A DNA stretch of 64,000 nt from assembly GCA_044449065.1 (NCBI GenBank), contig JBIOHP010000005.1, positions 107,374-171,373 on the forward strand, given 5' to 3'. Positions 33,080-57,838 of this stretch are shown here, in pieces. The translations under genes were made by a program, and so were the position numbers. Position 1 is the first letter of the stretch. Each line of letters opens with the position of its first letter. The stretch is from Bacteroidota bacterium. Its GTDB lineage: Bacteria; Bacteroidota; Ignavibacteria; UBA10030; SZUA-254. The notes under the pieces were generated by a model. The model worked only from the letters and a program-made list of their open reading frames with translations, was not told the DNA's origin and ran no database searches.

Positions 33080-33285
33080 GTGACAATATCCCAGTATAAG
33101 ATTTTAGAAAAACCCAGCCACAAAGACGGCGGGCAAGTCGGCGAAGGCGGCATGTCCCAAAATCACCCACGCGCGTTTTTTGCAAGTGGTTATGATTTTG
33201 CGGATCTCCCGTTGTTTGGATTCCGCTTTGACAACGGGATTCCAAAAAGCGGAACCGTTGAGCGAAGCGAGAACGGGAGCCCACT
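33080..33285 (+). promoter_or_regulatory. kinase leader element L1 (variant A): a uORF of about 69 codons ending in ATGA at the K1 start
   Basis: Degenerate copy of the kinase 5' end (GTG-TISQYKILEK), then the conserved block cccagccacaaagacggcgggcaagtcggcgaaggcggcatgtcccaaaatcacccacgcgcgttttttgcaagtgg...ggatctcccgttgtttggattccgctttgacaacgggattccaaaaagcggaaccgttgagcgaagcgagaacgggagcccactATG. Confidence 0.7.
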
Positions 33286-36015
33286 ATGATTGGGCAGACG
33301 ATATCTCACTACAAAATTCTTGAGAAATTGGGAGAGGGCGGAATGGGTGTTGTCTACAAAGCCCAGGATACAAAACTTGATCGCTTCGTCGCGTTAAAAT
33401 TCTTATCTCCTCATCTTGCCTCTTCGGAACAGGATAAGTCCCGTTTCACCCAGGAGGCGAAAGCCGCAGCGGCGCTCAATCATCCGAATATTTGCACGAT
33501 CATCGATATTCAGGAAAATGACGGCGTCATGTTTATCGTAATGGAATTTGTTGATGGTCAGACATTGCGCGAGAAAAAGGCATCCATCACGTTTAAACAG
33601 GCAATCGATATTGGAATTCAGATAGCGGAGGGTTTAGGCGCGGCTCATGATAAAGGCATCGTGCACAGGGATATCAAACCCGAAAACATCATGATCCGAA
33701 GGGATGGCATCGCGCAAATAATGGACTTTGGACTTGCGAAACTTCGCGGCAGCGTTACGCGGCTGACAAAAGAGGGGAGCACAATCGGCACGGCAGGATA
33801 TATGTCGCCGGAACAAGTGCAGGGACAGGATATCGACCACAGGTCGGATATATTTTCGTTTGGAGTTTTACTGTATGAACTTATCACCGGTCAGCTTCCG
33901 TTTAAGGGCGTACATGAAACTGCATTGATGTATGAAATTGTGAATATGGAAGCGCCGCCGATGTCTTCGATTAAACCGGACATAGAGGCAACCCTCGACG
34001 CGATTGTTCTGGAATGTTTAGAAAAAGATCCCAACGAACGAACGCAATCTGCCAAGCAGGTATCCATAGATTTAAAACATTTTAAACGCGAGTCAACGCG
34101 ACAGCGGGTCAGCCGCATCACAACGGCAAAGCCGGTACAATCATATTCAAATGTTAAGCAACCGGAACCGCAGAACATCCAGCTTTCCAAATCCACCGGA
34201 TTGGCAGGTAAAATACCCTGGTTAATTTCCATCGTCTGCCTGATTGGGTTCTCAGTATTTGCCGGTCTTTATTTGAAGCGCCAGAATATTGATCCCCAGA
34301 TGGTACAGTCATATATTCTCCCGCCCGAAAATTCCAGTTTTGCCACCCATTCCGGAAACACGGGAGAAGGACACCTTGCGCTTTCACCGGACGGAAGCAT
34401 GCTCGCCTTCGTGTGCGCTGATAGTGCGGGCAAAACTCACTTAATGGTCCGCCCTTTAAATTCTATCGATGCAAAAGAACTTCCTTCGACCCAGGAGGCG
34501 GGCTATCCGTTCTGGTCGCCGGATAATAGATACATTGGTTTTTTCCAGGGTGGAAAACTGAAAAAAATTGAAGCGTCCGGCGGACCTTCGTTGACGATAT
34601 GCGACGCAGCGGACGGACGCGGCGCATCATGGAATCAAGATGGAATAATCATACTGGCGCCAAACCCGGCCGGACCAATTTATCAGGTATCCGAGGCAGG
34701 CGGAACCCCTGTCGCCATCACAAAATTTGACACCACAAGACATACCCACTCGCACCGCTGGCCCTTCTTCCTGCCGGATGGAAAACATTTCCTCTATTTT
34801 TCACGATCAAGTTTTGGCGGCGTTGAACGGGAAGAGGACGCTCTTTATACCGCCTCCCTGGACGGAAAAGATAATAAACGACTTATACCTGCAAAGGCAA
34901 ATGTGGCATACGTTTCGGGTATGTTGATCTATTTAAGCGATAAAACGCTAATGGCGCAACGCTTCCAACCTGATAAACTTGAACTTATCGGGGAAGCCAA
35001 GCCGATAGCCGAACCTATTGAGTATGACCTGGATTATAATAGAGCGATTTTTACTGTGTCCCAGAATGGCATCCTCTGTTATCAATCACGAAGCACAAAA
35101 GTGGGCTGGCAGTTGGAATGGCTTGACCGCAAAGGCAATTTGGTGGGTAAAATTGGCGAACCTGCCCAGATAGGATCTGCGGCGCTATCACCCGACGAAA
35201 AAAAAATCGCCTATGATGTCTATGATCCTCAATCAAAAAATAAGGATATATGGATTTATGAGCTCGCGCGGGGAATTAAAACAAGATTTACCTTCGATCC
35301 CTCTGTAGACGAATTGCCAAATTGGTCGCCCGATGGCAGCAAGATTATATTTCATTCAGATCGAAAGGGACACTATGATTTGTACCAAAAAACAACTGAC
35401 GGAGAAGGGAGCGAGGATGTACTCCTTGAATCTCCAGAAGCGAAATTTCCTTACGATTTCTCGAGCGACGGTAAATATTTCACCTACTCAGCCAACGATT
35501 CCCATACCGGATCGGACATCTGGATTCTTCCACTCACCGGCGACAGAAAACCAATCAGATTAGTGCAATCGGAATTCGATGATGATGTTTCACACTTTTC
35601 AAGGGATATGCGGTGGATTTCCTACCGGTCGAATGAATCAGGCAACTACGAACTTTATGTCCGACCATTTCTGGATGCTGAAGGGAAAATAGCAACTACC
35701 CAGGCGCGTAAATGGCAAATATCCGTGAATGGAATCGCGGTCAATTCAAGTGAGGAATGGAGCAAAAATGGGAAGGAATTTTATTACCTCTCCCAGGATA
35801 ATAAATTTATCGCGGTTGAGGTCAGGACAAACGGATCATCGTTCGAGATTGGCAACTCAAACGAATTGTTTGACGTCAAATCGAATACCGCTATTTCTTT
35901 TGTCGATGCAAGCGCTGACGGAAATAAATTTCTTTTCATCGTCACTGTAGGCGGAGAGGTTCATCCTCCCATTACACTGGTGACAAATTGGGATAAGGAA
36001 CTTAAGAACCAATGA
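33286..36015 (+). CDS. receptor Ser/Thr protein kinase K1: Hanks-type kinase, TM helix, PD40/TolB-like beta-propeller
   Basis: Gly-loop LGEGGMGVVYKA, VALKFL, HRDIKPENIM, DFG and GTAGYMSPE. TM helix IPWLISIVCLIGFSVFAGLYL. Repeated SPDG/FSPDG propeller motifs, 909 aa. Confidence 0.9.
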   Translation: MIGQTISHYKILEKLGEGGMGVVYKAQDTKLDRFVALKFLSPHLASSEQDKSRFTQEAKAAAALNHPNICTIIDIQENDGVMFIVMEFVDGQTLREKKASITFKQAIDIGIQIAEGLGAAHDKGIVHRDIKPENIMIRRDGIAQIMDFGLAKLRGSVTRLTKEGSTIGTAGYMSPEQVQGQDIDHRSDIFSFGVLLYELITGQLPFKGVHETALMYEIVNMEAPPMSSIKPDIEATLDAIVLECLEKDPNERTQSAKQVSIDLKHFKRESTRQRVSRITTAKPVQSYSNVKQPEPQNIQLSKSTGLAGKIPWLISIVCLIGFSVFAGLYLKRQNIDPQMVQSYILPPENSSFATHSGNTGEGHLALSPDGSMLAFVCADSAGKTHLMVRPLNSIDAKELPSTQEAGYPFWSPDNRYIGFFQGGKLKKIEASGGPSLTICDAADGRGASWNQDGIIILAPNPAGPIYQVSEAGGTPVAITKFDTTRHTHSHRWPFFLPDGKHFLYFSRSSFGGVEREEDALYTASLDGKDNKRLIPAKANVAYVSGMLIYLSDKTLMAQRFQPDKLELIGEAKPIAEPIEYDLDYNRAIFTVSQNGILCYQSRSTKVGWQLEWLDRKGNLVGKIGEPAQIGSAALSPDEKKIAYDVYDPQSKNKDIWIYELARGIKTRFTFDPSVDELPNWSPDGSKIIFHSDRKGHYDLYQKTTDGEGSEDVLLESPEAKFPYDFSSDGKYFTYSANDSHTGSDIWILPLTGDRKPIRLVQSEFDDDVSHFSRDMRWISYRSNESGNYELYVRPFLDAEGKIATTQARKWQISVNGIAVNSSEEWSKNGKEFYYLSQDNKFIAVEVRTNGSSFEIGNSNELFDVKSNTAISFVDASADGNKFLFIVTVGGEVHPPITLVTNWDKELKNQ

Positions 36016-36202
36016 TTGGTCAAACCATCTCACAATACACTATTATTGAAAAGCTGGGAGAGGGCGGCATGTCCCAAACTTTCCCACGAGCGCAGCGAGT
36101 GGAAGAAAGTTTGAGGATCTCCCGTTGTTTGGATTCCGCTTTGACAACGGGATTCCAAAAAGCGGAACCGCTGGAACACAGTGGAAGCGGGAGGCGTGGA
36201 CT
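36012..36202 (+). promoter_or_regulatory. kinase leader element L2 (variant B, lacking the 27-nt CCCGCC..GGCGGG hairpin insert)
   Basis: The uORF ATG overlaps the K1 stop (ATGA at 36012-36015). The uORF MIGQTISQYTIIEKLGEGGMSQTFPRAQ... ends in ATGA at the K2 ATG (36203). Confidence 0.7.
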
Positions 36203-38917: not shown

Positions 38918-39132
38918 ATGATCGGAAAAACTATCTCACACTACAGGATTCTCGAGAAGCCCCGCCATAAAGACGGCGGGCAAGTTGGCGAGGGCGGAAT
39001 GTCCCAAAATCACCCACGCGCGTTTTTTGCAAGTGGTTGTGATTTTGCGGATCTCCCGTTGTTTGGATTCCGCTTTGACAACGGGATTCCAAAAAGCGGA
39101 ACCGTTGAGCGAAGCGAGAACGGGAACCCCCT
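38918..39132 (+). promoter_or_regulatory. kinase leader element L3 (variant A)
   Basis: uORF MIGKTISHYRILEKPRHKDGGQVGEGGMSQNHPRAFFASGCDFADLPLFGFRFDNGIPKSGTVERSENGNPL, with its stop overlapping the K3 ATG. Confidence 0.7.
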
Positions 39133-41805
39133 ATGATTGGACAGTCAATATCTCATTACAAAATCCTTGAGAAGCTGGGAGAAGGCGGGATGGGGATCGT
39201 CTATAAAGCAGAGGATACTAACCTCAAAAGAATTGTCGCATTGAAATTTTTACCCAGCCATCTTTCTGCATCGGAAGCCGACAAAGCGCGATTTATACAG
39301 GAAGCACAGGCGGCATCCTCGCTTAATCATCCCAATGTCTGCACTATTCACGATATCCAGGAACACGACGGGCAAATGTTCATCGTGATGGAATTTGTCG
39401 ACGGTCAAACATTACGGGAAAAAAAATCATCCATTACCATGAAACAGGCAATCGATATCGGCATCCAGATCGCTGATGGGCTTGCCGCCGCACATGAGAA
39501 AGGGATTATCCACCGGGATATCAAACCCGATAATATCATGGTCCGGAAGGATGGCATCGTTCAAATTATGGATTTCGGGTTGGCCAAGCTCAGAGGTGTC
39601 TCGAAATTAACGAAAGAAGGAAGCACAATCGGAACTGCAGGGTACATGTCGCCTGAACAAGTGCAGGGTTTAGAGACGGATCATCGTTCGGATATATTTT
39701 CTTTCGGTGTACTTTTATTCGAGCTTTTAACGGGACAACTCCCATTTAAAGGTGTCCATGAAACAGCGATTGCATACGAAATTGTAAACGTCGATGCTCC
39801 CCCTATGTCATCCATTAAACCTGAAATCGATTCAGCGCTTGATGCTATTGTTCTGGAATGTCTTGCAAAAGAACCTTCGGAACGATCCCAATCAATTGCG
39901 GAAGTTGCTAAAGATCTGCGGCGGTACAAACGGGAATCAAGCAGGCAGCATCTGAGCAGGTCATTCCCCGCGCAATCTGCAATACGTCAGATAGGCGCCG
40001 TGACTTCTGCCCCCACTGTTGCGATCACTCCTCAACGAAGCATTCTTCCGTGGGGAATTGCAGGGATGCTTCTCATTGTAACATCCATATTGCTATTTCG
40101 TCAATATTTCGCCTCGGCTGAACGTCAGCCCCTATTAATAGCTTCCATCGCTCCGCCCGATAGCGTATACATTCACTCGTACGGTCAGGCAGCAGGTCCC
40201 CCGGCAATTTCACCTGACGGCAGGACAATCATGTATTGTGGAGTGGCTTCTAACGGAATTACCCAGATTTATGTTCGTTCGCTTCATGAAAATGTTACGC
40301 GAGCACTGGATGGAACAAACTACGCGCAATATCCATTCTGGTCGCCGGATGGAAAACAGATCGGATTCTTCGCCGGAGGGAAAATCAAGAAGATAGAGGT
40401 CGATGGCGGTTCTCCTGTAACGGTTTGTGTTGCCATCAATCCCCGCGGCGGGACATGGAGCAGCGCTGGAGTGATTCTCTTCGCCCCCGATTACCAATCG
40501 CCGATCTCCCGGGTATCCGCCGATGGCGGGATTCCGGAGCCATTAACGAAATTAGACACCTCGCGCAATGAAGTATCGCATCGATGGCCCTTTGCTTTGC
40601 CTGATGGAAAACACTTTCTCTATTTTTCGCGTATAGCTAACAATTCCGGTCCCGCGGAGGGTCATGCCGTCTATGCTTCGTCGCTCGATGGAAAAGATAA
40701 CAGGTTGGTTCTCCGCACCAATTCCAATGCCGTCTACGCCGCCGGGTACTTGCTTTTTGTCCGGGGATCGACATTGATGGCGCAACAATTCGATCAATCC
40801 TCCGTGCAGCTAAAGGGCGATCCCGCTCCATTGGCGGAAGGTGTCATTGATGATCCCGGATTTAATCAATCGGTTTTTTCCGCATCGCAAACGGGGATCC
40901 TGATTTACCAGCCAGGAAATGTACGAGCCGGAGCAAAATTATTAATCACCGATCTCAACGGTAAAATAATTTCAACCCTAGGTGAGAGCATAGAAAACTT
41001 TCGCGTCCGTTATGCTCCTGACGGAGAGCATATCATTGCCAGCATTTTCGATCCTAAGTTGTTGCGATTAAATATCTGGGAATATGATCTCCATACCGGC
41101 GGTAGGAACCGGATCACCTCAGGCACCGGCGAAGATAACGCGATCCCCTCTCCGACCAGCGATGATATTATTTATTCTTCCCAGCGAACCGGCGTTTGGA
41201 ATTTGTACGAAAAATCGATGAGTGGTCAGGGTGGTGATTCAGCCCTTCACCCATCCCCAAGCTATGATTTATCTCTTGATTGGTCGCGCGACGGTTCCCT
41301 TGTATTATTTTCGAGAGTAGAACCATCTAAAACCCAAGCAGATTTGTGGATCATGCAAATGAAGAATGCACATGAACAATATCCGGTGGTAAACACGGAG
41401 TTTGACGAAGTTGGGGGGCGGTTCTCACCCGATGGTAAATGGATCGCTTATGTTTCGAACGAGAGCGGCGACTACGAAGTTTATATAAAATCAGCCGTGA
41501 AAACGGAAACTCAAAGTTGGAAGATTTCATCAGCAGGCGGATACTTTCCCTGCTGGGCAGGCAGCAGCAATGAATTGTGTTATGTGAGCAGTGAGAATAA
41601 AATGATGCTTGTCACTCTCCGGTACAAAGATAAGATGGTCGAGGTTGCGAGTATCCATTCTTTATTTAGTGTACCCGCATTTTTGGAGAGTTATGATATC
41701 TCCCCCAATGGAAAAACGATGGTAATCAATCGCAGTCTTGAAATGCAAAAATCGGCGCCGCTGACTATGCTCGTCAACTGGCAGGAGGAGTTGAAACAGA
41801 AATGA
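39133..41805 (+). CDS. receptor Ser/Thr protein kinase K3: kinase, TM, PD40 beta-propeller
   Basis: LGEGGMGIVYKA, HRDIKPDNIM, DFG, TM helix ILPWGIAGMLLIVTSILLF, PD40 repeats, 890 aa. Confidence 0.9.
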   Translation: MIGQSISHYKILEKLGEGGMGIVYKAEDTNLKRIVALKFLPSHLSASEADKARFIQEAQAASSLNHPNVCTIHDIQEHDGQMFIVMEFVDGQTLREKKSSITMKQAIDIGIQIADGLAAAHEKGIIHRDIKPDNIMVRKDGIVQIMDFGLAKLRGVSKLTKEGSTIGTAGYMSPEQVQGLETDHRSDIFSFGVLLFELLTGQLPFKGVHETAIAYEIVNVDAPPMSSIKPEIDSALDAIVLECLAKEPSERSQSIAEVAKDLRRYKRESSRQHLSRSFPAQSAIRQIGAVTSAPTVAITPQRSILPWGIAGMLLIVTSILLFRQYFASAERQPLLIASIAPPDSVYIHSYGQAAGPPAISPDGRTIMYCGVASNGITQIYVRSLHENVTRALDGTNYAQYPFWSPDGKQIGFFAGGKIKKIEVDGGSPVTVCVAINPRGGTWSSAGVILFAPDYQSPISRVSADGGIPEPLTKLDTSRNEVSHRWPFALPDGKHFLYFSRIANNSGPAEGHAVYASSLDGKDNRLVLRTNSNAVYAAGYLLFVRGSTLMAQQFDQSSVQLKGDPAPLAEGVIDDPGFNQSVFSASQTGILIYQPGNVRAGAKLLITDLNGKIISTLGESIENFRVRYAPDGEHIIASIFDPKLLRLNIWEYDLHTGGRNRITSGTGEDNAIPSPTSDDIIYSSQRTGVWNLYEKSMSGQGGDSALHPSPSYDLSLDWSRDGSLVLFSRVEPSKTQADLWIMQMKNAHEQYPVVNTEFDEVGGRFSPDGKWIAYVSNESGDYEVYIKSAVKTETQSWKISSAGGYFPCWAGSSNELCYVSSENKMMLVTLRYKDKMVEVASIHSLFSVPAFLESYDISPNGKTMVINRSLEMQKSAPLTMLVNWQEELKQK

Positions 41806-42016
41806 TCGGAAAAACCGTTTCCCATTATAAGATTATCGAGAAGCCCCGCCACAAAAACGGCGGGCAAGTCGGCGAGGGCGGAATGTCCCAAACTTTCCCA
41901 CGAGCGCAGCGAGTGGATGAAAGTTTGAGGATCTCCCGTTGTTTGGATTCCGCTTTGACAACGGGATTCCAAAAAGCGGAACAGCTGGAACGCAGTGGAA
42001 GCGGGAGGCGTGGACT
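41802..42016 (+). promoter_or_regulatory. kinase leader element L4 (variant B)
   Basis: The uORF ATG overlaps the K3 stop (ATGA). Sequence ...cccgccacaaaaacggcgggcaagtcggcgagggcggaatgtcccaaactttcccacgagcgcagcgagtggatgaaagtttgaggatctcccgttgtttggattccgctttgacaacgggattccaaaaagcggaacagctggaacgcagtggaagcgggaggcgtggactATG. Confidence 0.7.
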
Positions 42017-44392
42017 ATGATTGGGCAGACAATATCTCATTACAAAATTCTTGAGAAATTGGGTGAAGGCGGCATGGGCATCGTCTATAAAGCCCAGGAT
42101 ACCAGACTTGATCGAATTGTCGCATTGAAATTTTTACCCGTCCATCTGACTTCGAATGAAGCCGAGAAAGCGCGTTTTTTGCAGGAAGCAAAAGCCGCAG
42201 CGACGCTCAATCATCCTCACGTCTGCACTATCTATGGTATTAGCGAGCATGATGATCACGAGGGTGGTATTCAGCAATTTATTGAGATGGAATATGTGGA
42301 CGGCGAAACGCTCCGCAAAAAAATACCACTTGCCAAAACCGACGATGCGTATAAGTATGCAATACAGATCGGCGATGCGTTGCAGGAAGCGCATTCAAAA
42401 GGAATTGTTCACCGTGACGTGAAATGCGAAAATATCATGGTGAATTCAAAGAATCAAATCAAAGTAATGGATTTCGGCCTGGCGAAGCTCAAAGGATCGT
42501 TAAAGCTCACAAGGACCTCGAGCACGGTCGGCACGCTTGCGTATATGGCGCCGGAACAGATTCAAGGCGGTGATGTGGACGCGCGATCCGATATTTTCTC
42601 ATTCGGTATTGTTCTGTTCGAGATGCTGACGGGCAAGACGCCCTTCCGGGGTGAACATGATGCGGCGATGATGTACTCCATTGTGAATGAAGAACCAGAG
42701 ACGGTTGCGAAATATAAACCAGACGTCTCACCCGAGGTGGAACGGATTATCAAACGAGCTCTCGAAAAAGACCCCGATGACCGGTATCAATCGGCGGCGG
42801 ATATGGTAAGTGAGATCCGGCGCGTCCAGAGGCAATCAACGAGAATCCTTCGTCCTTCAATGGTTGATATGCCGACGCTCCATCCAACTTTTTCTCATGA
42901 GAACCCGGTTGCGAAGTCCACCCCATCATCGAAGAAGAAAACAATTCTCATTTCTGCACTAATAGGGGCAGCACTTATTATTGCCCTTGCAGTCTACCTA
43001 TTAATGGGGCATCAACAAGCAATCGGATCGCTGGCGGTGCTGCCATTCGAGAATGTCGGCGCTTCGCCGGATCAAGAATATCTTTCCGATGGTATCACAG
43101 AAAATATTATCAACAACCTGACAAAAATATCCTCCCTCAGAGTTGTTCCGCGCAGTACGGTTTTCCGTTTTAAGGGAAAAGAACTCGATGTTCAGGATAT
43201 CGGTTCTAAGTTAAATGTTAATGCCGTGCTCACAGGACGAATCACCCATCGCGGACAATCTCTCGATGTTCAAGTAGACCTGATTGATATCAAAAGGGAA
43301 TCGCAATTGTGGGGCAACAATTATCAATCCTCTGAAGCGGAAATTCTCTCGCTCCAGGAGCAAATCACCAAGGACGTTTCGTCAAAATTAGGATTAGGAC
43401 TCTCCACAGATCTTCGCGAGGGACTCGCAAAACGCTCAACCGATAACACACAAGCATATCAATTATATCTCCAGGGACGTTACTGGTGGAATAAACGCAC
43501 GAGTGAGTCTATAGATCGCGCCATCAATTTCTTCAATCAGGCAATTGCGCTCGATTCTACGTACGCTCTCGCTTATGCAGGTTTGGCAGATTGTTACATC
43601 ATCCAATCTCAGTACTCCGGAATACCGACACGGATAACTATTCCCCTGACAAAAAATGCCGCCCGGAAAGCCCTCGAACTCGATAATTCATTGGCAGAAG
43701 CGCACACTACGCTCGCATTTTGCCTTTACGAAGCATGGAAATACGATGAGGCAGAAAAAGAATTTAAACAGGCAATCGCTCTTAATCCCAAGTATCCGAC
43801 GGCTTATCACTGGTACAACATAATGCTCGTAAGAACCGGACGAGCTGATGAAGCATGGAAAATTATTCAGCAAGCTCACGATCTTGATCCATTTTCACCG
43901 GTTATTACATTAAATGTGGGCGCTATATTTTTCCTGCGCGGGCAATTTGAAGAAGCACTCACCTATCTTAAAAAAAGCATTGAGCTTGACCCGTCATTCG
44001 CCCCGGGATATGCCTGGATTGGATTAACCTATGACCGCATGAATAACGTAACAGAGGCTCTTCCTCAACTCGAAAAAGCATTAGAGCTATCCGGCCGATC
44101 GGCTGAATGCATTTCGTATCTCGGATATTTTTATGGTAAAAGAGGAATGCGTGATAAAGCAATCGAGTTATTAAAAGAAAACGAAGAACGGTATAAAGCA
44201 GGCACCGGCGCTGCCTACAATATCGCTCGTATCTATGCAGGGCTTGGCGACAAGGATAATGTTTTAAAATGGCTCGAACAGGACGTCGCCGATCAAAGCA
44301 CCTGGACCGGAGAACTCAAAACCGATTATGTGTGGGATAGCGTTAAAACCGATCCGCGTTTTATTGCATTATTACATAAAGTTGGATTATAG
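42017..44392 (+). CDS. receptor Ser/Thr protein kinase K4: kinase, TM, periplasmic alpha/beta module (LPFxN...YxSDGxTExxI), TPR repeats
   Basis: LGEGGMGIVYKA, HRDVKCENIM, DFG. TM helix ILISALIGAALIIALAVYLL. Then AVLPFENVGASPDQEYLSDGITENIINNL followed by TPR-like repeats, 792 aa from the ATG at 42017. Confidence 0.88.
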   Translation: MIGQTISHYKILEKLGEGGMGIVYKAQDTRLDRIVALKFLPVHLTSNEAEKARFLQEAKAAATLNHPHVCTIYGISEHDDHEGGIQQFIEMEYVDGETLRKKIPLAKTDDAYKYAIQIGDALQEAHSKGIVHRDVKCENIMVNSKNQIKVMDFGLAKLKGSLKLTRTSSTVGTLAYMAPEQIQGGDVDARSDIFSFGIVLFEMLTGKTPFRGEHDAAMMYSIVNEEPETVAKYKPDVSPEVERIIKRALEKDPDDRYQSAADMVSEIRRVQRQSTRILRPSMVDMPTLHPTFSHENPVAKSTPSSKKKTILISALIGAALIIALAVYLLMGHQQAIGSLAVLPFENVGASPDQEYLSDGITENIINNLTKISSLRVVPRSTVFRFKGKELDVQDIGSKLNVNAVLTGRITHRGQSLDVQVDLIDIKRESQLWGNNYQSSEAEILSLQEQITKDVSSKLGLGLSTDLREGLAKRSTDNTQAYQLYLQGRYWWNKRTSESIDRAINFFNQAIALDSTYALAYAGLADCYIIQSQYSGIPTRITIPLTKNAARKALELDNSLAEAHTTLAFCLYEAWKYDEAEKEFKQAIALNPKYPTAYHWYNIMLVRTGRADEAWKIIQQAHDLDPFSPVITLNVGAIFFLRGQFEEALTYLKKSIELDPSFAPGYAWIGLTYDRMNNVTEALPQLEKALELSGRSAECISYLGYFYGKRGMRDKAIELLKENEERYKAGTGAAYNIARIYAGLGDKDNVLKWLEQDVADQSTWTGELKTDYVWDSVKTDPRFIALLHKVGL

Positions 44393-44468
44393 AAATTATG
44401 ACCGGAAGTATAGGTTCAAGCAAGTATGGTGTTATCAACAATACGCGAGAGAAAAATAGGAGAAGTTT

Positions 44469-46598
44469 ATGATAGGTCAAAGTATTTCACACTACAAGAT
44501 TTTAGAAAAACTCGGAGAAGGCGGAATGGGGGTCGTCTATAAAGCGCAGGATTTAAAACTCGACCGTGTCGTTGCCATTAAATTTCTCCCTTCCCATCTT
44601 TCTGCTTCCGCAGACGATAAGGCGAGATTTCTGCAAGAGGCAAAAGCGACCGCAGCGTTAAATCATCCCAATATCCTCAATGTTTATGAGATTGATGAAC
44701 GGGAAGGCGGGATGTTTTTCGTTATGGAATACATAGATGGAAAGACTTTGAAATCTCATATCGCGAATCTAAAATCGGGAGATGGTATTTCTGTGAAGCA
44801 AGCTATCGACTGGACCATCCAGATTGCTCAGGGGCTAAAGGCGGCTCATGAAAAAGGCATCTTCCATCGCGACATCAAAACCGAGAACATCATGCTCACT
44901 ATGGATGGCAATCCAAAGATCATGGATTTTGGAATTGCCAAACTGAAAAATAGTACGGGTCTTACAAAGACAGGCACTTCGCTGGGAACGCTGAGTTATA
45001 TGTCGCCGGAGCAGGCGCAAGGGATGTCGGCAGATCACCGCTCGGATATTTGGGCGCTCGGCATTGTTTTTTATGAAATGTTGACGGGCGAGGTTCCCTT
45101 TAGAAGCGAGCATGAGGCAGGATTGATTTACCTAATTATGAATGAGCACGCGGTGGCGCCGAGTTCCCATGATAAGAGGATTCCACACGTAATAGATTCA
45201 TTTATGATGGAACTCCTCGAGAAAGACCGGGAACGAAGATTACAATCAATGAACGAAGTAGTTCTCCGAGTTCGCGAAATCAGCGGCGAAATTGAAAATA
45301 CAGGCAAAACCGGTAAGACGAAAGCAATTGCTCTCCTCCCCTTTGAAAATATCAGTCCCGATAAAGACAGCGATTATTTCAGCGATGGTCTTACCGAAGA
45401 ATTGATTCTAAGTTTATCACGGTTGAAAGATATACGGGTTGTTTCAAGAACAAGCACCATGCAATACAAGGGAACGCGGAAAGATATTAAGACGATTGGC
45501 AGAGAACTTGGCGCCCGGTACATCCTTGAAGGGAGCGTAAGAAAATTCCAGGACGATTTGCGAATTACGGTGCAATTAGTGGACGTCGAAACTGACGCCC
45601 AGCTCTGGGCTGCAAAATACAAAGGCAAGCTCGCGGATGTGTTTGATATTCAAGAACAAGTGTCGGAACAAATCGTTGATGCGTTAATGGTGAAATTAAC
45701 TCCGGTTGAAAAAGTCGTTCTTGCGAAACGATCCACCGATAATCCGGAAGCGTTCGATCTCAATCTCCGGGCAAGAAATTTCCTTACGCGCTATACTAAG
45801 AACGATATTAACGCTGCCATTCAACTGTTCAACCGTGCGATCGAACTGGATGTGAGATACGCCGCGGCGTATGCCGGAATGAGCGAGTCTTACGGCTCCC
45901 TCTATTTTTTTTACGAGAGAAATAATCTCTGGCTTGATAAATCCATTGAAGCAGGACTGAAAGCCCTCGCGTACGATCCCACACTCTCTGAGGCGTATGC
46001 TTCGCTGGCGCTTGCCTACTTCAATCAGAAATCTATCGATGAAGCCGTAAAGGCAGGACACAAAGCCATCGAACTTGATTCGAATAATCATATCGCTTAT
46101 TGGATTTTGGGCAGAATATATCATAGTACCGATCGTGACCGCGAGTCGGTCGGATTGTTTAAAAAAGCAATATCACTTAATCCGGAGTTCTACTCCGCCT
46201 ATGGCGATCTCCGTATGGTCTATGAGCGCCTTGGCGAGATGGACAATTGGAAGGAAACCCTGCAACAAAGCGCACAGATGTTTCCGCGTTATCTATCAAA
46301 ACACCCCGAAGATGCGCGCGCGCATATGTATTATGGTCTCACTCTCGGGATGGCTGAGCGAATCGGCGAGGCAAAACAAGAGGCGGCAAAAGCGCTTGAG
46401 CTTAACCCATCCGATCCACTCATGTTATATAACGCCACCTGCTTTTATGCCCGGCTCGGTGAAAAGCAGTTAGCGGTAAATACCTTGAAAAATGCCGTTA
46501 CCGCCGGATATGAGAATTTTGAGTGGATTAAGCGCGATCCTGACTGCGAGACTCTCCGCAACGAGCCAGGCTATCTTGAATTGATGAAAGGAAAATAA
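44469..46598 (+). CDS. Ser/Thr protein kinase K5: kinase fused directly (no TM helix) to an LPFxN-type alpha/beta module plus TPR repeats
   Basis: LGEGGMGVVYKA, HRDIKTENIM, DFGIAK. No hydrophobic segment between the kinase and AIALLPFENISPDKDSDYFSDGLTEELI. It has its own GGAG-containing upstream region rather than the shared leader. Confidence 0.88.
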   Translation: MIGQSISHYKILEKLGEGGMGVVYKAQDLKLDRVVAIKFLPSHLSASADDKARFLQEAKATAALNHPNILNVYEIDEREGGMFFVMEYIDGKTLKSHIANLKSGDGISVKQAIDWTIQIAQGLKAAHEKGIFHRDIKTENIMLTMDGNPKIMDFGIAKLKNSTGLTKTGTSLGTLSYMSPEQAQGMSADHRSDIWALGIVFYEMLTGEVPFRSEHEAGLIYLIMNEHAVAPSSHDKRIPHVIDSFMMELLEKDRERRLQSMNEVVLRVREISGEIENTGKTGKTKAIALLPFENISPDKDSDYFSDGLTEELILSLSRLKDIRVVSRTSTMQYKGTRKDIKTIGRELGARYILEGSVRKFQDDLRITVQLVDVETDAQLWAAKYKGKLADVFDIQEQVSEQIVDALMVKLTPVEKVVLAKRSTDNPEAFDLNLRARNFLTRYTKNDINAAIQLFNRAIELDVRYAAAYAGMSESYGSLYFFYERNNLWLDKSIEAGLKALAYDPTLSEAYASLALAYFNQKSIDEAVKAGHKAIELDSNNHIAYWILGRIYHSTDRDRESVGLFKKAISLNPEFYSAYGDLRMVYERLGEMDNWKETLQQSAQMFPRYLSKHPEDARAHMYYGLTLGMAERIGEAKQEAAKALELNPSDPLMLYNATCFYARLGEKQLAVNTLKNAVTAGYENFEWIKRDPDCETLRNEPGYLELMKGK

Positions 46599-46602
46599 AT
46601 AC

Positions 46603-46817
46603 GTGATAGGTCGGATAATATCACACTACGACATCATTGAAAAATCCCGCCATAAAGACGGCGGGCAAGTCGGCGAGGGCGGCATGTCCCAACATCACTC
46701 GCGAATTGTTTTTACCAGTGATTGTGATGTTGCGAATCTCCCGTTGTCTGGATTCCGCTTTGTCAACGGGATTCCAAAAAGCGGAACCGTTGAGCGAAGC
46801 GAGAACGGGAACCCACT
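46603..46817 (+). promoter_or_regulatory. kinase leader element L5 (variant A, GTG-initiated degenerate uORF)
   Basis: GTG-IGRIISHYDIIEKSRHKDGGQVGEGGMSQ..., with the stop overlapping the K6 ATG (ATGA). Confidence 0.65.
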
Positions 46818-49247: not shown

Positions 49248-49682
49248 ATGACAACGGTTAGAAATATCATACAAGCTAAGGGGAGCAACGTCTGGGCGAT
49301 TGGTCCCACGGCTTCCGTGTTTGAAGCCCTCAAATTGATGGCGGAAAAAAATGTTGGGGTATTACTTATCAGGGAAGGAGAAGCGGTGGTGGGGATATTA
49401 TCGGAGCGCGATTACGCCCGCAAGATTGCCCTAAAGGGATTGACTTCGCACAAGGTGTTAGTTAAAGAAATCATGACAGCGAAGGTCATATCCATCGCGC
49501 CAGAACAATCCATCGACGACTGTATGGCTATTATGCTGGAAAAACATATCCGCCATCTTCCTGTCATGGAAAACAACCTTTTAAGAGGGATCGTCTCGAT
49601 CGGCGATGTGGTTAAAGCTATTGTCGCTGAACGGGAGCAAACAATTGAACACCTGACAAACTACATAACCGGAAACCGGTAG
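49248..49682 (+). CDS. CBS-domain pair protein
   Basis: 144 aa with two CBS motifs (…GVLLIREGEAVVGILSERD… and …HLPVMENNLLRGIVSIGD…), inserted between K6 and leader L6. Confidence 0.75.
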   Translation: MTTVRNIIQAKGSNVWAIGPTASVFEALKLMAEKNVGVLLIREGEAVVGILSERDYARKIALKGLTSHKVLVKEIMTAKVISIAPEQSIDDCMAIMLEKHIRHLPVMENNLLRGIVSIGDVVKAIVAEREQTIEHLTNYITGNR

Positions 49683-49685: not shown

Positions 49686-49900
49686 ATGATCGGTCAAACA
49701 ATTTCCCATTATAAGATTCTTGAAAAGCCCCGCCACAAAGACGGCGGGCAAGTCGGCGAGGGCGAAATATCCCAAAATCACCCACGCGCGTTTTTTGCAA
49801 GTGGTTGTGATTTTGCGGATCTCCCGTTGTTTGGATTTCGCTTTGACAACGGGATTCCAAAAAGCGGAACCGTTGAGCGAAGCGAGAACGGGAGCCCCCT
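49686..49900 (+). promoter_or_regulatory. kinase leader element L6 (variant A)
   Basis: uORF MIGQTISHYKILEKPRHKDGGQVGEGEISQNHPRAFFASGCDFADLPLFGFRFDNGIPKSGTVERSENGSPL, with its stop overlapping the K7 ATG. Confidence 0.7.
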
Positions 49901-52285
49901 ATGATTGGGCAGACAATATCTCATTACAAAATTCTTGAGAAATTGGGTGAGGGTGGAATGGGCATCGTCTACAAGGCAGAAGACACGCGTCTTCACCGGA
50001 TGGTGGCTATAAAGATATTGCCGACTCACCTCGCCGTTCACGGCGAGGAGCGTGAACGCTTTACCCTTGAGGCGCAAGCGGCTTCAGCGATTAACAATCC
50101 GAACATCTGTACGATTTATGAAATTGATGAAACGAACGATGATACGTTTATCGTGATGGAATATGTCGAAGGGAGTACGGTTCGCGAATGGATTCAGAAG
50201 AAACTCAGTGAAACGGAAGGATTCCGCAAGACGGGACTAACAGAAGCGATTCACCTTGCTATCCAGATTGCCGAGGGACTTGATAAGGCGCACGAAAAGG
50301 GAATCGTTCACCGCGATATTAAGTCGGAGAACGTGATGGTCACCCCGGATGGCCGCGCGAAGATCATGGATTTTGGATTGGCGAAACTTCGCGGCGTCAG
50401 TAAGCTTACAAAAGTAGGCAGCACGGTCGGAACACTTGCCTATATGTCTCCCGAGCAGATCGAAGGACTCGAAACAGACCACCGCACAGACATTTTCAGT
50501 TTCGGCGTCCTGCTCTATGAAATGATCACGGGGAAACTTCCGTTTCTCGCCGCCCACGAAGCGGCAATCATGTACGAGATCATCAATGTGGTGCCGCAGC
50601 AACCCTCGCAGGTGCGCCAGACCGTCGACTTGGAGCTCGACCGGATAGTCATGAAGTGCATGGAAAAGAATCGTGACGAACGATATCAATCGTTGAAAGA
50701 AGTTGTCGTTGATCTTCGACGATTTAGCCGAGACTCCTCAGGTAAAACGATGGCTCGTCCGGCTACCATGAGTGATCACGCCCACCAGAACAAGAGTGCT
50801 TCTTCACCACGGTCATCAAGAACGAATATTGCAGCGATTGCAGGCAGCGTAATTCTTATAAGCGCTTCACTCTCATATTACTACTTCACACACCACCCAT
50901 CCTCAATCGATTCGCTCGCAGTGCTTCCGTTCGTCAACGCCAGCCCCGATTCAAGCATGGAATATCTCAGCGATGGAATCACCGAGTCTCTCATCAATTC
51001 TCTCTCGCAACTCCCGGACTTAAAAGTGATGTCGAGGAATTCGGTTTTTCGTTATAAGGGAAGCAATGCCGATCTTCAAACGATCGGACGGGAAGTCGGC
51101 GTCCATGCGATACTATTGGGGCGCGTGTTGGAACGTGGGGATAATCTCAGCATCAGTGCCGAGCTGATCAATGTATCGGATAACAGCCATCTCTGGGGCG
51201 AGCAGTACAACAGGAAATCTGCAGACCTCCTCGCCGTTCAGGAAGAAATAACACGCGATATTTCAGATAAATTGAAGCTTCGCCTCGCCGACAAGGACGA
51301 AAAACATTCCGCCAAAGCATCAACCGAGAACACGGAAGCATACCAATTGTACCTGAAAGGTCGTTATCACTGGAACAGGCGTTCCGCCGACGAGCTCCGG
51401 AAAGCGATTGATTACTTCCAGCAGGCGGTTGAATCAGACCCAAATTATGCCCTCGCCTATTCAGGAATTGCAGATGCATACGGAGTCCTCGGGTGGTTTG
51501 AATATGGCATAGTGTCTCCGCGCGATGCGTTCCCCAAAGCCAAAGCCGCAGCGCTCAAAGCCGTGGCAATCGATCCGGGGCTGGCTGAAGGATATGCCTC
51601 TCTTGCCTTTGCGTACCAGCACGATCATGACACACTTGCCGCGTCTCAGAACTACAAACGGGCGATTGAACTTAATCCTTCATATCCGACCGCCCATCAT
51701 TGGTATTCCGAGGAGTTGATGAGCGAGGGGAAAAAGGATGAATCTATCGAAGAGATAAAGCGCGCGCTCACCCTCGATCCGCTTTCGTTGATTATTACCC
51801 GCGATGTGGGCTGGATGTATTACTTCGCCCGCCGGTACGACGAAGCGAGTGTATACATTCAAAAATCGTTGGATCTCGATTCGAATTTTTCGCGGGGCCA
51901 TCTTCTCCTTGGTCTGTGCCGCATCCAGCAGGGAGCGCTTGGCGATGCCATAACCGAATTCAAAACAGCTTCGAAATTCTCGAACGAGACTATCAGTACC
52001 GCCCTCCTTGCCTATTGTTATGCTAAAGCTGGAAAAACCACCGAGGCAAAAGATATTCTCCGGAGTATGCTTTCACTTTCCTCATCGAAGTATGTTTCGC
52101 CCGGCGCAATTGCGCTGGTCTATATGGGCCTCGGAGATCGGGAAAAGATTTTCGAGTGGCTTAACAAAGCTGTCGACGATCAATCGGGAATTTTTGGTTT
52201 TGTAAAGGTTGATCCGCTCTTTGATGGCATCAGGAATGATCCCCAATTCGTCGCATTGCTGCACAAGGGAGGGATCCCTCTATGA
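49901..52285 (+). CDS. receptor Ser/Thr protein kinase K7: kinase, TM, alpha/beta module, TPR
   Basis: LGEGGMGIVYKA, HRDIKSENVM, DFG, a TM helix, AVLPFVNASPDSSMEYLSDGITESLINSL, TPR repeats. Confidence 0.9.
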   Translation: MIGQTISHYKILEKLGEGGMGIVYKAEDTRLHRMVAIKILPTHLAVHGEERERFTLEAQAASAINNPNICTIYEIDETNDDTFIVMEYVEGSTVREWIQKKLSETEGFRKTGLTEAIHLAIQIAEGLDKAHEKGIVHRDIKSENVMVTPDGRAKIMDFGLAKLRGVSKLTKVGSTVGTLAYMSPEQIEGLETDHRTDIFSFGVLLYEMITGKLPFLAAHEAAIMYEIINVVPQQPSQVRQTVDLELDRIVMKCMEKNRDERYQSLKEVVVDLRRFSRDSSGKTMARPATMSDHAHQNKSASSPRSSRTNIAAIAGSVILISASLSYYYFTHHPSSIDSLAVLPFVNASPDSSMEYLSDGITESLINSLSQLPDLKVMSRNSVFRYKGSNADLQTIGREVGVHAILLGRVLERGDNLSISAELINVSDNSHLWGEQYNRKSADLLAVQEEITRDISDKLKLRLADKDEKHSAKASTENTEAYQLYLKGRYHWNRRSADELRKAIDYFQQAVESDPNYALAYSGIADAYGVLGWFEYGIVSPRDAFPKAKAAALKAVAIDPGLAEGYASLAFAYQHDHDTLAASQNYKRAIELNPSYPTAHHWYSEELMSEGKKDESIEEIKRALTLDPLSLIITRDVGWMYYFARRYDEASVYIQKSLDLDSNFSRGHLLLGLCRIQQGALGDAITEFKTASKFSNETISTALLAYCYAKAGKTTEAKDILRSMLSLSSSKYVSPGAIALVYMGLGDREKIFEWLNKAVDDQSGIFGFVKVDPLFDGIRNDPQFVALLHKGGIPL

Positions 52286-55005
52286 TCGGACAAACTATTT
52301 CGCATTACAAAATTCTTGAGAAGTTAGGTGAAGGCGGCATGGGCGTCGTCTATAAAGCCCAGGATACAAAACTTGATCGCTTTGTCGCGCTGAAGTTCCT
52401 CCCCTCCCAACTCAATGCCTCCGAACAGGACAAGGCGCGGTTCACGCAAGAGGCGAAATCCGCGGCAGCGCTGAACCATCCGAATGTCTGTTCGATCATC
52501 GACATACAGGAACACGATGGAACGATGTTTATCGTGATGGAGTTTGTGGATGGCCAGACCCTCCGCGACAAAATGAAGACCGCCGGAAGTGCGATTGAAG
52601 GTTCTACACTTCCCTTGAAACAGGCGATCGATATCGGAATCCAGATATCAGATGGGCTTGCTGCGGCGCATGAAAAAGGAATTGTACACCGGGACATCAA
52701 ACCGGAAAATATCATGATCCGCAAAGACGGCATCGCGCAGATTATGGATTTCGGATTGGCAAAACTTCGCGCGAGCGGCAGCAAGATAACCCGTCTTACA
52801 AAAGAAGGCAGCACGGTAGGCACAGCAGGATATATGTCGCCGGAGCAGATTCAGGGACAGGACACCGACCCCCGCTCGGATATTTTCTCTCTGGGAGCGC
52901 TGTTGTACGAACTATTTACGGGGGAATTACCCTTTAGAGGAGTTCATGAAACCGCGTTAATGTACGAAATCGTCAACGTTGACCCGGCGCCATTGTCGGC
53001 GGTGAAACCGGAAATCGATTCTTCACTCGATGCAATTGTCTTAGAGTGCCTTGCCAAATATCCCTCGGAACGGTTCCAGTCTGTCGCAGAGGTTGGCAAG
53101 GAACTGAGGAGATTCAAGCGCGAATCATCACGGCAAAAAGTTAGCAGAATAACCTCTGCCCGCCCGGCATACGTTCAATCCGCAACCATTCCGGTAATGG
53201 CGCCAACGCCTGCTCCTGTTCAGATTCAACAACAGACCCGTCTGCCCTGGATTGTGAGTGGACTCCTTTTTCTTGTTGCTGTGGCGTCAATCATTTTTCA
53301 TTTCCTTACTCCCCCTTCACATGTGGAAAATCGAGTCACGAGATCATTGATTTTACCCCCCGCGAAAACAAATTTTAATATGCAGGTCGGCGGGCACCTT
53401 GCCATCTCCCCCGATGGCAATAGCATCGCATTTGTTGGAACCGATTCCAGCGGCGTCGACCACGTTTGGGTCCGTCCAATCAATTCGTTAACGGCTATCT
53501 CGCTCTCTGGAACAGAAGGCGCAACATACCCCTTCTGGTCCCCCGACAGCCGCACAATAGGATTCTTTGCGGGCGGCAAGCTCAAGAAGATCGAAGCAAC
53601 AGGCGGACCTGTTCTTACGATCTGCGATGCTTCCGATGGGCGCGGGGGAACATGGAATGAGGCGGGCATTATCGTGTTTTCCGCTGGTCCGAGCGATCCG
53701 CTCTCCAAGGTATCATCAGCCGGAGGAATCCCGGCGAGGATAACTGTATTGGATACTTCCCACCATGAAAATAGTCACCGCTGGCCCTGGTTTCTACCCG
53801 ATGGAAAACATTTTCTCTATACGACTCAATCTCAGACGACAGGCGGAACGGATAATGACGCAATCAGAATTTCAACCATCGATTCCTCCATGAACAAAAC
53901 ATTGATCCCTGGCAATTCGAATACGTGTTTTGTTAATGGGCATATTTTATTTATCCGGCAAGGGACATTGATGGCGCAACCATTTGATCCCGGAAAACTC
54001 GAAATGACCGGTGACGCTATTCCAATCGCGGAACAAATCCAATATGGAGCGGCGCGCAGCAGGGGGATGTTTTCCTCATCGTTGAACGGAGTGCTTATTT
54101 TTCAGAGCGGCGAAAATCAAACGCAACGGGTTGCCATATTCGACCGCACCGGCAACCGGACGCATCTTGTTACCGATCTCAATGCGTCTAATCCGAAGTT
54201 TTCACCGGACCAAAGTCACATCGTCTACCATATTATTGATCCCCAGTCCCGCAACGCCGATATCTGGGTTCACGAACTTTCGAGGGGAGTGAGTTCCCGA
54301 TTAACATTTAACCCTGCGTTTGAAATACAACCGTTTTGGTCTCCTCACGGGGACACCGTTGTTTTCGGCTCCAACCGGAAGGGCGTGTACAATCTCTACA
54401 TCAAAAGCGCAAACGGTGCAGGCGATGAACAACTCATTTTGGAATCGAACCGCGACAAGTATGTCAGCGACTGGTCGCGCGATGGACGGTATTTGGCATT
54501 CACCACGACCGGAGATCCAAAAACAAAAGCTGATCTCTGGGTGCTTCCGTTTTTTGGCGACCGGAAACCGATACCTTTTGTCCAAACTGAGTTCAATGAA
54601 GGAAACGGCAGTTTTTCCCCGGATTCTCGCTGGATTGCCTATCAATCCGATGAAAGCGGAAGAAGTGAAATCTATGCCCGCTTACTCGATGGTTCCGGAG
54701 GAAAGTTCCAGATATCGACAAATGGCGGTAGAAAACCGTTCTGGAAATTAGATGGCAGGCAGCTCTTTTTCACCTCAACCGACAGAAAATTACAGGTTGC
54801 GTACATTAAGGAAAACGCATCTTCCCTTTTTGTCGACAGTGTAGCCACATTGTTTGATTTTGAATCGCGCGGTATCATAGCTAACAATATCGACGATGTT
54901 AGCAACGACGGCAAGCAAGTTCTCGCCCTAGTTACGGACTCCAAACAAACTTCGACGCCCATTACACTTGTCGTGAACTGGGACGAGGAGTTGAGGAAGA
55001 AATGA
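52282..55005 (+). CDS. receptor Ser/Thr protein kinase K8: kinase, TM, PD40 beta-propeller (no leader; its ATG overlaps the K7 stop)
   Basis: LGEGGMGVVYKA, HRDIKPENIM, DFG, TM helix LPWIVSGLLFLVAVASIIF, PD40 repeats. ATGA overlap with K7 at 52282-52285. Confidence 0.9.
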   Translation: MIGQTISHYKILEKLGEGGMGVVYKAQDTKLDRFVALKFLPSQLNASEQDKARFTQEAKSAAALNHPNVCSIIDIQEHDGTMFIVMEFVDGQTLRDKMKTAGSAIEGSTLPLKQAIDIGIQISDGLAAAHEKGIVHRDIKPENIMIRKDGIAQIMDFGLAKLRASGSKITRLTKEGSTVGTAGYMSPEQIQGQDTDPRSDIFSLGALLYELFTGELPFRGVHETALMYEIVNVDPAPLSAVKPEIDSSLDAIVLECLAKYPSERFQSVAEVGKELRRFKRESSRQKVSRITSARPAYVQSATIPVMAPTPAPVQIQQQTRLPWIVSGLLFLVAVASIIFHFLTPPSHVENRVTRSLILPPAKTNFNMQVGGHLAISPDGNSIAFVGTDSSGVDHVWVRPINSLTAISLSGTEGATYPFWSPDSRTIGFFAGGKLKKIEATGGPVLTICDASDGRGGTWNEAGIIVFSAGPSDPLSKVSSAGGIPARITVLDTSHHENSHRWPWFLPDGKHFLYTTQSQTTGGTDNDAIRISTIDSSMNKTLIPGNSNTCFVNGHILFIRQGTLMAQPFDPGKLEMTGDAIPIAEQIQYGAARSRGMFSSSLNGVLIFQSGENQTQRVAIFDRTGNRTHLVTDLNASNPKFSPDQSHIVYHIIDPQSRNADIWVHELSRGVSSRLTFNPAFEIQPFWSPHGDTVVFGSNRKGVYNLYIKSANGAGDEQLILESNRDKYVSDWSRDGRYLAFTTTGDPKTKADLWVLPFFGDRKPIPFVQTEFNEGNGSFSPDSRWIAYQSDESGRSEIYARLLDGSGGKFQISTNGGRKPFWKLDGRQLFFTSTDRKLQVAYIKENASSLFVDSVATLFDFESRGIIANNIDDVSNDGKQVLALVTDSKQTSTPITLVVNWDEELRKK

Positions 55006-55216
55006 TCGGTCAAATAATTTCACATTATAAGATTCTTGAAAAGCCCCGCCACAAAGATGGCGGGCAAGTCGGCGAAGGCGGAATGTCCCAAACTTTCCCA
55101 CAAGCGCAGCGAGTGGATGAAAGTTTGAGGATCTCCCGTTGTTTGGATTCCGCTTTGACAACGGGATTCCAAAAAGCGGAACAGCTGGAACGCAGTGGAA
55201 GCGGGAGGCGTGGACT
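55002..55216 (+). promoter_or_regulatory. kinase leader element L7 (variant B)
   Basis: The uORF ATG overlaps the K8 stop. uORF MIGQIISHYKILEKPRHKDGGQVGEGGMSQTFPQAQRVDESLRISRCLDSALTTGFQKAEQLERSGSGRRGL, with its stop overlapping the K9 ATG. Confidence 0.7.
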
Positions 55217-57623: not shown

Positions 57624-57838
57624 ATGATGAGCCACACGATTTCCCACTACAAGCTTCTCGAGAAGCCCCGCCATAAAGACGGCGGGCAAGTCGGCGAGGG
57701 CAACATGTCCCAAACTTTCCCACGAGTGCGGCGAGTGGATGGAAGTTTGAGGATCTCCCGTTGTTTGGATTCCGCTTTGACAACGGGATTCCAAAAAGCG
57801 GAACAGCTGGAACGCAGTGGAAGCGGGAGGCGTGGACT
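57624..57838 (+). promoter_or_regulatory. kinase leader element L8 (variant B)
   Basis: uORF MMSHTISHYKLLEKPRHKDGGQVGEGNMSQTFPRVRRVDGSLRISRCLDSALTTGFQKAEQLERSGSGRRGL, with its stop overlapping the K10 ATG. Confidence 0.7.

Follow-up and report, generated by a model that had tools for sequence, protein, structure and literature searches.

PknG of Mycobacterium and Corynebacterium is a soluble Hanks-type kinase whose C-terminal tetratricopeptide repeat (TPR) domain has been proposed to link the sensing of a signal with phosphorylation (PMC8546545). PknS of Xanthomonas citri is a transmembrane (TM) kinase with periplasmic TPRs (PMC13147305). Stop-start overlaps of the form ATGA and the coupling of adjacent genes by termination-reinitiation have also been described (PMC6728339). 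Here, we examine K5, one of ten co-directional Ser/Thr kinase genes (K1 to K10; protein starts typically MIGQ...) carried on a 64,000-nucleotide (nt) stretch of contig JBIOHP010000005.1 from a Bacteroidota bacterium (assembly GCA_044449065.1); the whole stretch is referred to below as the window. Judged from its sequence, K5 is probably an active, soluble Hanks-type kinase with a cytoplasmic alpha/beta-TPR sensor module, read together with K4 and translated in two ways. It falls within a known kind, that of soluble Hanks kinases with a TPR sensor, and reuses an envelope fold in the cytoplasm in the style of CadC and HilA. The features of the K5 protein are as follows:

44469..46598, forward strand: K5 open reading frame (ORF), 709 amino acids (aa), predicted soluble Hanks-type Ser/Thr kinase
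44493..45248, forward strand: kinase domain, aa 9 to 260, catalytic motifs all intact
45249..45323, forward strand: linker, aa 261 to 285, an amphipathic helix and then a disordered stretch, at the position of the TM helix of the paralogs
45324..45692, forward strand: TolB_N/LpoB/CadC-like alpha/beta domain, aa 286 to 408, beginning AIALLPFENISPD
45744..46586, forward strand: TPR solenoid, aa 426 to 706, with a TPR_END_plus C-terminal cap

A profile search recovered Pkinase at residues 9 to 260 (PF00069; 193.2 bits against a curated cutoff of 31.7), an LpoB/TolB_N-like alpha/beta domain at residues 285 to 383, and TPRs at residues 497 to 650. NCBIfam models for HilA/EilA and CadC matched residues 282 to 562 (E about 1e-11), far below their equivalog cutoffs, so that the likeness to CadC and HilA is one of domain homology only; the C terminus matched TPR_END_plus. 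An AlphaFold2 model built on 107 orthologs (predicted local distance difference test [pLDDT], 83.5) placed the kinase at residues 1 to 260, an amphipathic helix at 261 to 278, the alpha/beta domain at 286 to 408, and the TPR solenoid at 426 to 706, with both a bilobal kinase fold and a TolB_N / LpoB / CsgG / PelC-like alpha/beta fold present. Profile matches and model therefore agree on the alpha/beta module and TPR region that a preliminary description of this DNA had assigned to K5.

The preliminary description also held that K5 has no TM helix, whereas each of the nine other kinases has a hydrophobic segment. Kyte-Doolittle hydropathy, calculated over a 19-residue window for all ten kinases, agrees: the nine others each contain one hydrophobic segment at approximately residues 304 to 343 (scores of 1.55 to 2.85), and K5, as the only such kinase among the ten, contains none, its maximum of 1.15 falling inside the alpha/beta domain. 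Nor does the AlphaFold2 model contain a TM helix. When the five TPR-class kinases were aligned, the approximately 59 columns missing in K5 corresponded to the juxtamembrane and TM stretch of K4, K6, K7, and K9; where these paralogs carry the TM stretch, K5 passes from ...EIENTGKTGKTK directly to AIALLPFENISPD. Neither a lipobox nor a signal peptide was detected, the latter being precluded by a kinase domain that begins at residue 9, and the alpha/beta module directly follows the cytoplasmic kinase domain. Given these absences and the conservation of the TM-less state in the 120 closest homologs and in a near-monophyletic clade (see below), the proposal that K5 is a soluble cytoplasmic paralog is supported by its predicted protein.

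Set beside the described systems, K5 resembles PknG in having no TM helix and in placing a TPR domain behind the Hanks-type kinase domain. It differs in lacking a rubredoxin-like domain and an N-terminal docking segment (no N-terminal Pfam match other than the kinase domain was obtained), in possessing an additional TolB_N-like alpha/beta domain, and in keeping activation-loop Thr residues. The closest solved relatives of its kinase domain are PknB, StkP, and PknA, with PknG outside the top 60; K5 is not a PknG ortholog. Compared with receptor-type Hanks kinases such as PknB and PknS, K5 is missing the single TM helix, so that its sensor module and kinase domain would not be separated by the membrane. 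The output domain of the ToxR-like regulators CadC and HilA is DNA-binding, whereas that of K5 is a kinase. For a TolB_N / LpoB / CsgG / PelC-like domain, a place in the cell envelope behind a signal peptide, lipobox, or TM helix would be expected; the K5 copy carries no such signal.

The junctions relevant to the expression of K5 are as follows:

44390..44392, forward strand: TAG stop codon of K4, the upstream TM/TPR-class kinase
44393..44468, forward strand: K4-K5 spacer, 76 nt, lacking a structured leader as well as any promoter-like or terminator-like site
44398..44472, forward strand: upstream ORF (uORF) of K5, 24 codons (MTGSIGSSKYGVINNTREKNRRSL*), whose TGA overlaps the K5 ATG (ATGA)
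44458..44462, forward strand: Shine-Dalgarno (SD)-like AGGAG at -11 to -7, separated by 6 nt from the K5 ATG, where the RNA is unstructured
52282..52285, forward strand: ATGA shared by the K7 stop and the K8 start, K8 being the second kinase without a leader

The preliminary description had placed a unique 76-nt spacer containing aggagaag at 44393 to 44468, and the flanking codons agree, with the K4 stop ending at 44392 and the K5 ATG opening at 44469. It was also right that the conserved leader of the neighboring kinases does not precede K5. The leader core motif occurs in eight copies in the window, each before a kinase and none before K5. A covariance model of the first leader hairpin (hairpin 1; model R1) gave eight window matches at 72 to 89 bits and no match in 44393 to 44468 at E <= 1. 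RNA folded from 44385 to 44500 was no more stable than shuffles (z = 0.04), whereas the K4 leader reached z = -2.6 with a folding energy of -81 kcal/mol. Both a TM helix in K5 and a leader-like structure in 44393 to 44468 were thus looked for, and neither was found. As the odd member of the array, K5 stands apart as the only TM-less kinase of the ten but not as the only leaderless one: K8 lacks a leader too, because its ATG at 52282 overlaps the K7 stop (52285).

The spacer is more than unique sequence, since it is filled by the 24-codon uORF with its ATGA and resembles the 5' coding sequence (CDS) of K5. The uORF opens with an ATG at 44398, 5 nt past the K4 stop, and an ORF of at least 24 codons with such a layout arises in 0.5% of shuffled spacers. 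Aligned with the first 63 nt of the K5 CDS, the spacer scored z = 3.4 (8 of 1,000 shuffles; 0 of 199 genomic controls), and its aggagaag lies opposite cggagaag (codons L-G-E-G) of the CDS. The likeness is modest and the uORF peptide MTGSIGSSKYGVIN degenerate. In local alignments of the spacer with the 5' CDSs of the kinases and with the N-terminal copies ("decoys"; see below) that precede the others, only K5's own 5' CDS gave a significant match. On this comparison, the uORF may be a decayed copy of the K5 5' CDS. As a whole, the short spacer looks like a pared-down version of the uORF leader that most of the neighboring kinases have.

It had further been suggested that K5 may be expressed independently, and a promoter of its own, located within the 76-nt spacer or shortly ahead of it, would fit with a well-placed SD and the missing shared leader; consensus scans, moreover, may miss the promoters of this lineage. 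However, neither a sigma-70-type nor a Bacteroidetes-type (TAnnTTTG, -7) promoter was found in or just before the spacer, where counts did not rise above shuffles, and a terminator scan of the spacer region found none after K4. The uORF bridges the spacer from 5 nt past the K4 stop. In other genomes, the gap between a K5-type gene and its upstream kinase lies between -4 and a few hundred nt; in the closest ortholog (87% identity) it is only 9 nt, which suggests that the spacer is peculiar to this one gene and changes readily in evolution. We consider a separate transcription unit unlikely. The defensible core of the suggestion is that K5 is expressed differently from the leader-bearing kinases, which is distinct from being transcribed independently.

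In the reading that we prefer, K5 would share the K4 transcript and could be translated by two routes. The first would use its own SD, which is exposed at ideal spacing and free of the hairpin that, in six of the eight genes with a leader, pairs an SD-like GGGAG; the second would be termination-reinitiation at the ATGA after the uORF, which spans the distance between K4 stop and K5 start. The leader-bearing genes would be subject to leader-dependent translational control, which K5 would escape because it has no hairpins. In the protein, a linker of approximately 25 residues would join the kinase domain to the TolB_N-like domain and TPR solenoid, the sensor module that the TM paralogs K4, K6, K7, and K9 would display outside the membrane. 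By analogy with PknG, this module may bind a cytoplasmic protein or ligand and thereby gate autophosphorylation of the activation loop. K5 and these four paralogs would then form a natural matched pair for determining what a widespread, uncharacterised module senses.

A regulatory or decoy role had also been considered for K5, and a K5 without catalytic activity, serving as a scaffold or decoy to titrate the partners of its membrane-bound relatives, would be consistent with a sensor-type module common to the TM paralogs and with the placement of K5 between them. The catalytic residues argue against it, as does the Pkinase score of 193 bits. Across 107 orthologs, the GxGxxG glycines (G16/G18/G21), K38 of VAIK, E57, the HRDxKxxN residues H133-R134-D135-K137-N140, D153-F154-G155, and S179-P180-E181 (SPE) are invariant or at least 90% conserved. 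In the activation loop, T166, S171, and T174 are invariant or nearly so and T168 is conserved in at least 90%; R257 is present in K5 and kept family-wide. Since these residues are so conserved, K5 does not appear to be a pseudokinase: its catalytic machinery is intact by sequence, and a dead decoy is very improbable.

To place K5 in its family, we compared it with database homologs and with the other kinases of the window. The exact protein is present in public data, listed as a "MAG: Bacteroidota bacterium" protein kinase (MAG, metagenome-assembled genome). Its best 120 database homologs share 66 to 100% identity with it, 85 of them are exactly 709 aa long, and none contains a hydrophobic window of >=1.4. 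When species-representative genomes were scanned, K5-type genes were located in approximately 70 Ignavibacteria-like MAGs, often in 2 to 4 tandem copies and commonly beside TM kinases; a kinase neighbor lies within 600 nt in 70 of 105 cases, and it is on this neighborhood that the suggested role of K5 as a regulatory partner of the membrane receptors would rest. In a neighbor-joining tree of 169 kinase domains, one clade holds 96 of the 106 TM-less kinases of 695 to 725 aa, including K5 of the window, and zero TM kinases. Within the window, the kinase domain of K5 is 52 to 59% identical to those of the nine others, and its C-terminal half is 26 to 34% identical to those of K4, K6, K7, and K9, making K5 the most divergent TPR-class member. 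By these sequence comparisons, K5 represents an old, separate, length-conserved TM-less branch inside the kinase arrays of many Ignavibacteria-like genomes, a dedicated soluble branch of a receptor-kinase family that these bacteria would have kept.

The missing columns and the divergent C terminus could also be expected of a degraded receptor kinase, one that is becoming a pseudogene after a recent deletion of its TM helix. That reading is effectively refuted by ortholog conservation and hardly credible: the TM-less 709-aa architecture recurs in homologs down to 66% identity, in one clade and across approximately 70 MAGs, the catalytic residues are invariant, and the intact ORF yields a confident AlphaFold2 fold. 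Equally far-fetched is a K5 that works at or outside the membrane by peripheral association or unrecognised export, with its module acting in the envelope, given that it has no export or membrane signal, that its N terminus is an ATP-dependent kinase domain, and that the module is usable in the cytoplasm in cyclase fusions and in HilA, a soluble regulator related to the TM protein CadC.

The fusions in question are class III adenylate/guanylate cyclases with a "TolB-like" domain and TPRs (P0145, P0189). As in K5, their LPFxNxSxD...YFxDG module directly follows a cytoplasmic catalytic domain with no TM helix between; unlike K5, the catalytic domain is a cyclase, and these fusions are uncharacterised too. 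They came from a homolog search with the alpha/beta module alone, which otherwise returned mostly short fragments and was useful only for such TM-less cyclase fusions. K5 would thus put a sensor fold of the envelope type (TolB_N-like plus TPR) to cytoplasmic use, in parallel with HilA when that protein is set against CadC.

Several points weigh against our interpretation of K5. The case is computational throughout. The predicted template modeling (pTM) score of the AlphaFold2 model is 0.46, so the relative placement of the domains is not fixed by the model, and the absence of a TM helix is read from hydropathy and AlphaFold2 rather than from a dedicated topology predictor. The promoter scans used consensus patterns, which may not fit this lineage. 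An SD-like motif precedes only about a third of the other window genes, which leaves the weight of the K5 AGGAG uncertain. The likeness of the spacer to the K5 5' CDS stands at approximately P = 0.01 before correction for ten comparisons, and the closest ortholog has not conserved the spacer.

The locus of that ortholog (L077) contains, 3' of the kinase at 2395 to 2900, what is left of the 5' end of a dead kinase gene (MISHYDIINKLGEG...), together with long inverted repeats rich in GC. The remnant is followed by an ORF beginning MLHSYTRIIVHLIWATKNRQ, which resembles a Y1 (IS200/RAYT-like) transposase.

The leader that K5 lacks is more unusual than K5 itself, consisting of a uORF that copies the kinase N terminus followed by a covarying hairpin outside the Rfam families. 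The kinases of the array and their leaders are as follows:

K1: leader 33080-33285; hairpin 1, 33146-33211; kinase start 33286
K2: leader 36012-36202; hairpin 1, 36063-36124; kinase start 36203
K3: leader 38918-39132; hairpin 1, 38993-39058; kinase start 39133
K4: leader 41802-42016; decoy uORF, 41802-42020; hairpin 1, 41877-41938 (forward strand); kinase start 42017
K5: kinase start 44469
K6: leader 46603-46817; hairpin 1, 46678-46743 (forward strand); kinase start 46818
K7: leader 49686-49900; hairpin 1, 49761-49826; kinase start 49901
K8: kinase start 52282
K9: leader 55002-55216; hairpin 1, 55077-55138; kinase start 55217
K10: leader 57624-57838; hairpin 1, 57699-57760; kinase start 57839

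The leader uORFs of the eight kinases are 64 to 72 codons long and start with ATG in six cases and with GTG in K1 and K6, the latter at 46603, 4 nt past the K5 stop. Their first 14 to 20 codons, the decoy, re-encode the N terminus of the kinase itself (MIGxTISHYKIxEK..GEGGM, comprising the beta1 strand and Gly-rich loop). The order of elements is the decoy copy, a 24-nt CCCGCC...GGCGGG hairpin, hairpin 1, a long stem pairing an SD-like GGGAG, and the end cTATGAtt. In seven leaders, the 24-nt hairpin is an in-frame insert (ccccgccacaaagacggcgggcaa) that splits the decoy between EK and GEGG; it is absent in K2. Subtypes A (K1, K3, K6, and K7) and B (K2, K4, K9, and K10) have 3' halves in different frames, both of which are open to the ATGA. 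The insert and the SD-pairing stem lie, for example, at the following positions (L006 and L016 are loci of other genomes):

33116-33139: 24-nt CCCGCC/GGCGGG insert (K1 leader)
41844-41867: equivalent insert (K4 leader)
46645-46668: equivalent insert (K6 leader)
41939-42016: SD-pairing stem (3' half of the K4 leader)
L006, 8280-8325: SD-pairing stem
L016, 1500-1548: SD-pairing stem

Similar small GC hairpins break the decoys in other genomes (L078 and L079).

Hairpin 1 has a conserved base (UCCCAAA...UUUGAGGA) and a variable middle with compensating changes. In a set of 27 model-fitted copies, including three weak reverse-strand matches on the same hairpins, 15 of 19 pairs showed compensatory changes, a level reached by 0 of 500 shuffles, although this covariation is an upper bound because the alignment was fitted to the model. 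Cells were paired in 96.9% of cases, versus 34 to 41% with the partners slid. No Rfam family was returned from a scan of 30000 to 64000 at E <= 1. An exact search for the leader core found none in 78 other loci or in metagenome contigs, and diverged copies were recovered only by the covariance model.

With the hairpin model, 16 more copies were recovered from 13 other loci. Of these, at least six precede K5-type kinases (L009 at 10552, L016 at 1548 and 6001, L022 at 8302, L043 at 1052, and L054 at 5570), and at least four precede TM kinases. The hairpins belong to Ignavibacteria-like MAGs and environmental metagenomes and in every case lie shortly ahead of a kinase start; in the metagenomes, they stand between a decoy and the real start. 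Loci in which the hairpin is also present are:

L006, L009, L014, L016, L018, L022, L032, L035, L043
L046, L048, L051, L054, L088, L113, L115, L142, L154

Decoy uORFs likewise occur before both classes, at least 14 of 103 K5-type and at least 13 of 55 TM kinases. Because hairpins and decoys precede the two classes alike, leaderlessness is, as far as these sequences indicate, not a class trait of K5-type kinases.

Decoys and real N termini were compared as 23 pairs across genomes. Over 356 codons, there were 175 synonymous-only differences and 49 replacements, in a sample biased toward conserved copies because it was chosen by peptide pattern. The junction between decoy and hairpin falls after codon 4, 10, 17, or 20, varying by copy. 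In the window, the first approximately 42 nt (about 14 codons; 33286 to 33327 in K1) of the leader-bearing real CDSs share a nucleotide identity of 0.89 that extends to synonymous sites, compared with 0.71 for K5; the conserved or homogenised unit thus seems to run from hairpin 1 into the CDS.

In the consensus fold, the SD-like GGGAG(G) before the real start pairs with CUCCCGU (UCCCGAU in short forms). GGGAG is present in six of the eight leaders; K3 and K6 carry GGGAA, with the terminal pair broken. CUCCCGUUG can pair alternatively with CAACGGG. Relative to L006 and L016, the window leaders contain approximately 45 extra nt, a TTCCGCTTT/AAAGCGGAA stem, in the SD-pairing hairpin.

We suggest only tentatively, and at somewhat less than even chances, that the shared leader is an undescribed cis-regulatory device of this kinase superfamily, comprising an N-terminus-copying uORF, a covarying hairpin with an SD-pairing stem, and an ATGA-overlapping stop. 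Two readings of its origin may be considered. In the first, purifying selection may act on the copied peptide itself, which would be a nascent-peptide or micropeptide signal. In the second, a cassette of hairpins, SD, and replacement 5' CDS, either mobile or evolving in concert, may have been inserted in the kinase 5' CDS, in which case the old start may have been left as a uORF that keeps translation coupled; K5, with its decayed copy and no hairpins, and K8, with a direct ATGA overlap with K7, may then be cassette-free states. Ribosomal bypassing between the two copies was set aside, as the uORF is open to the ATGA and the real copy has an ATG, with an SD-like motif in six of eight cases. 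Adenine-specific mutagenesis of the kind associated with diversity-generating retroelements was likewise rejected: differences between decoy and real 5' CDS are at third positions and synonymous, and they are not A-specific.

Long structured uORF leaders occur in one array with the minimal uORF of K5 and the direct overlap of stop and start at K8, and the leader contrast among its genes offers a ready comparison for leader control of kinase dosage. Every kinase (10 of 10) has an upstream ORF that stops on its ATG in an ATGA overlap, these ORFs being the eight long structured uORFs, the K5 mini-uORF, and, for K8, K7 itself. In this they resemble the described ATGA coupling systems. They differ in that the upstream ORFs of the array are short leaders, mostly copies of the kinase N terminus, for which coupling would be expected from the layout. 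The upstream ORF begins -4 to +34 nt from the preceding stop in nine of the ten genes; K1, the first in the array, is the exception at +179 nt from the preceding gene. The decoy ATGs of K2, K4, and K9 overlap the stops of the preceding kinases (K1, K3, and K8), as does the real K8 start. The region from K1 to K10 (33286 to 60520 of the window) is accordingly a near-gapless ORF chain, which suggests one long translationally coupled operon.

At their C termini, K1, K2, K3, K8, and K10 carry PD40 beta-propellers, and K4, K5, K6, K7, and K9 carry the TolB_N/LpoB-like alpha/beta domain with TPRs. A mechanical ORF list had placed TTG starts at 36125, 41939, 55139, and 57761, lengthening K2, K4, K9, and K10 by 26 codons (MFGFRFDNGIPKSG...). 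These extensions were rejected, since they arise only from the chance that the kinase frame is open through the subtype B leader; the true start of all four is the conserved MIGQ/MIDQ ATG.

Two genes that encode other protein types lie next to or within the array. A GAF plus SpoIIE (PP2C-type) phosphatase gene (30223 to 31509) is located upstream, and a CBS-pair protein gene (49248 to 49682) is located between K6 and K7; both products are plausible partners in a phospho-signaling locus. Farther away, the minus strand encodes two large, secreted-looking proteins at 19711 to 21672 and 23950 to 28056, whose ...NYPNPFNP...-type C termini resemble type IX secretion sorting domains.

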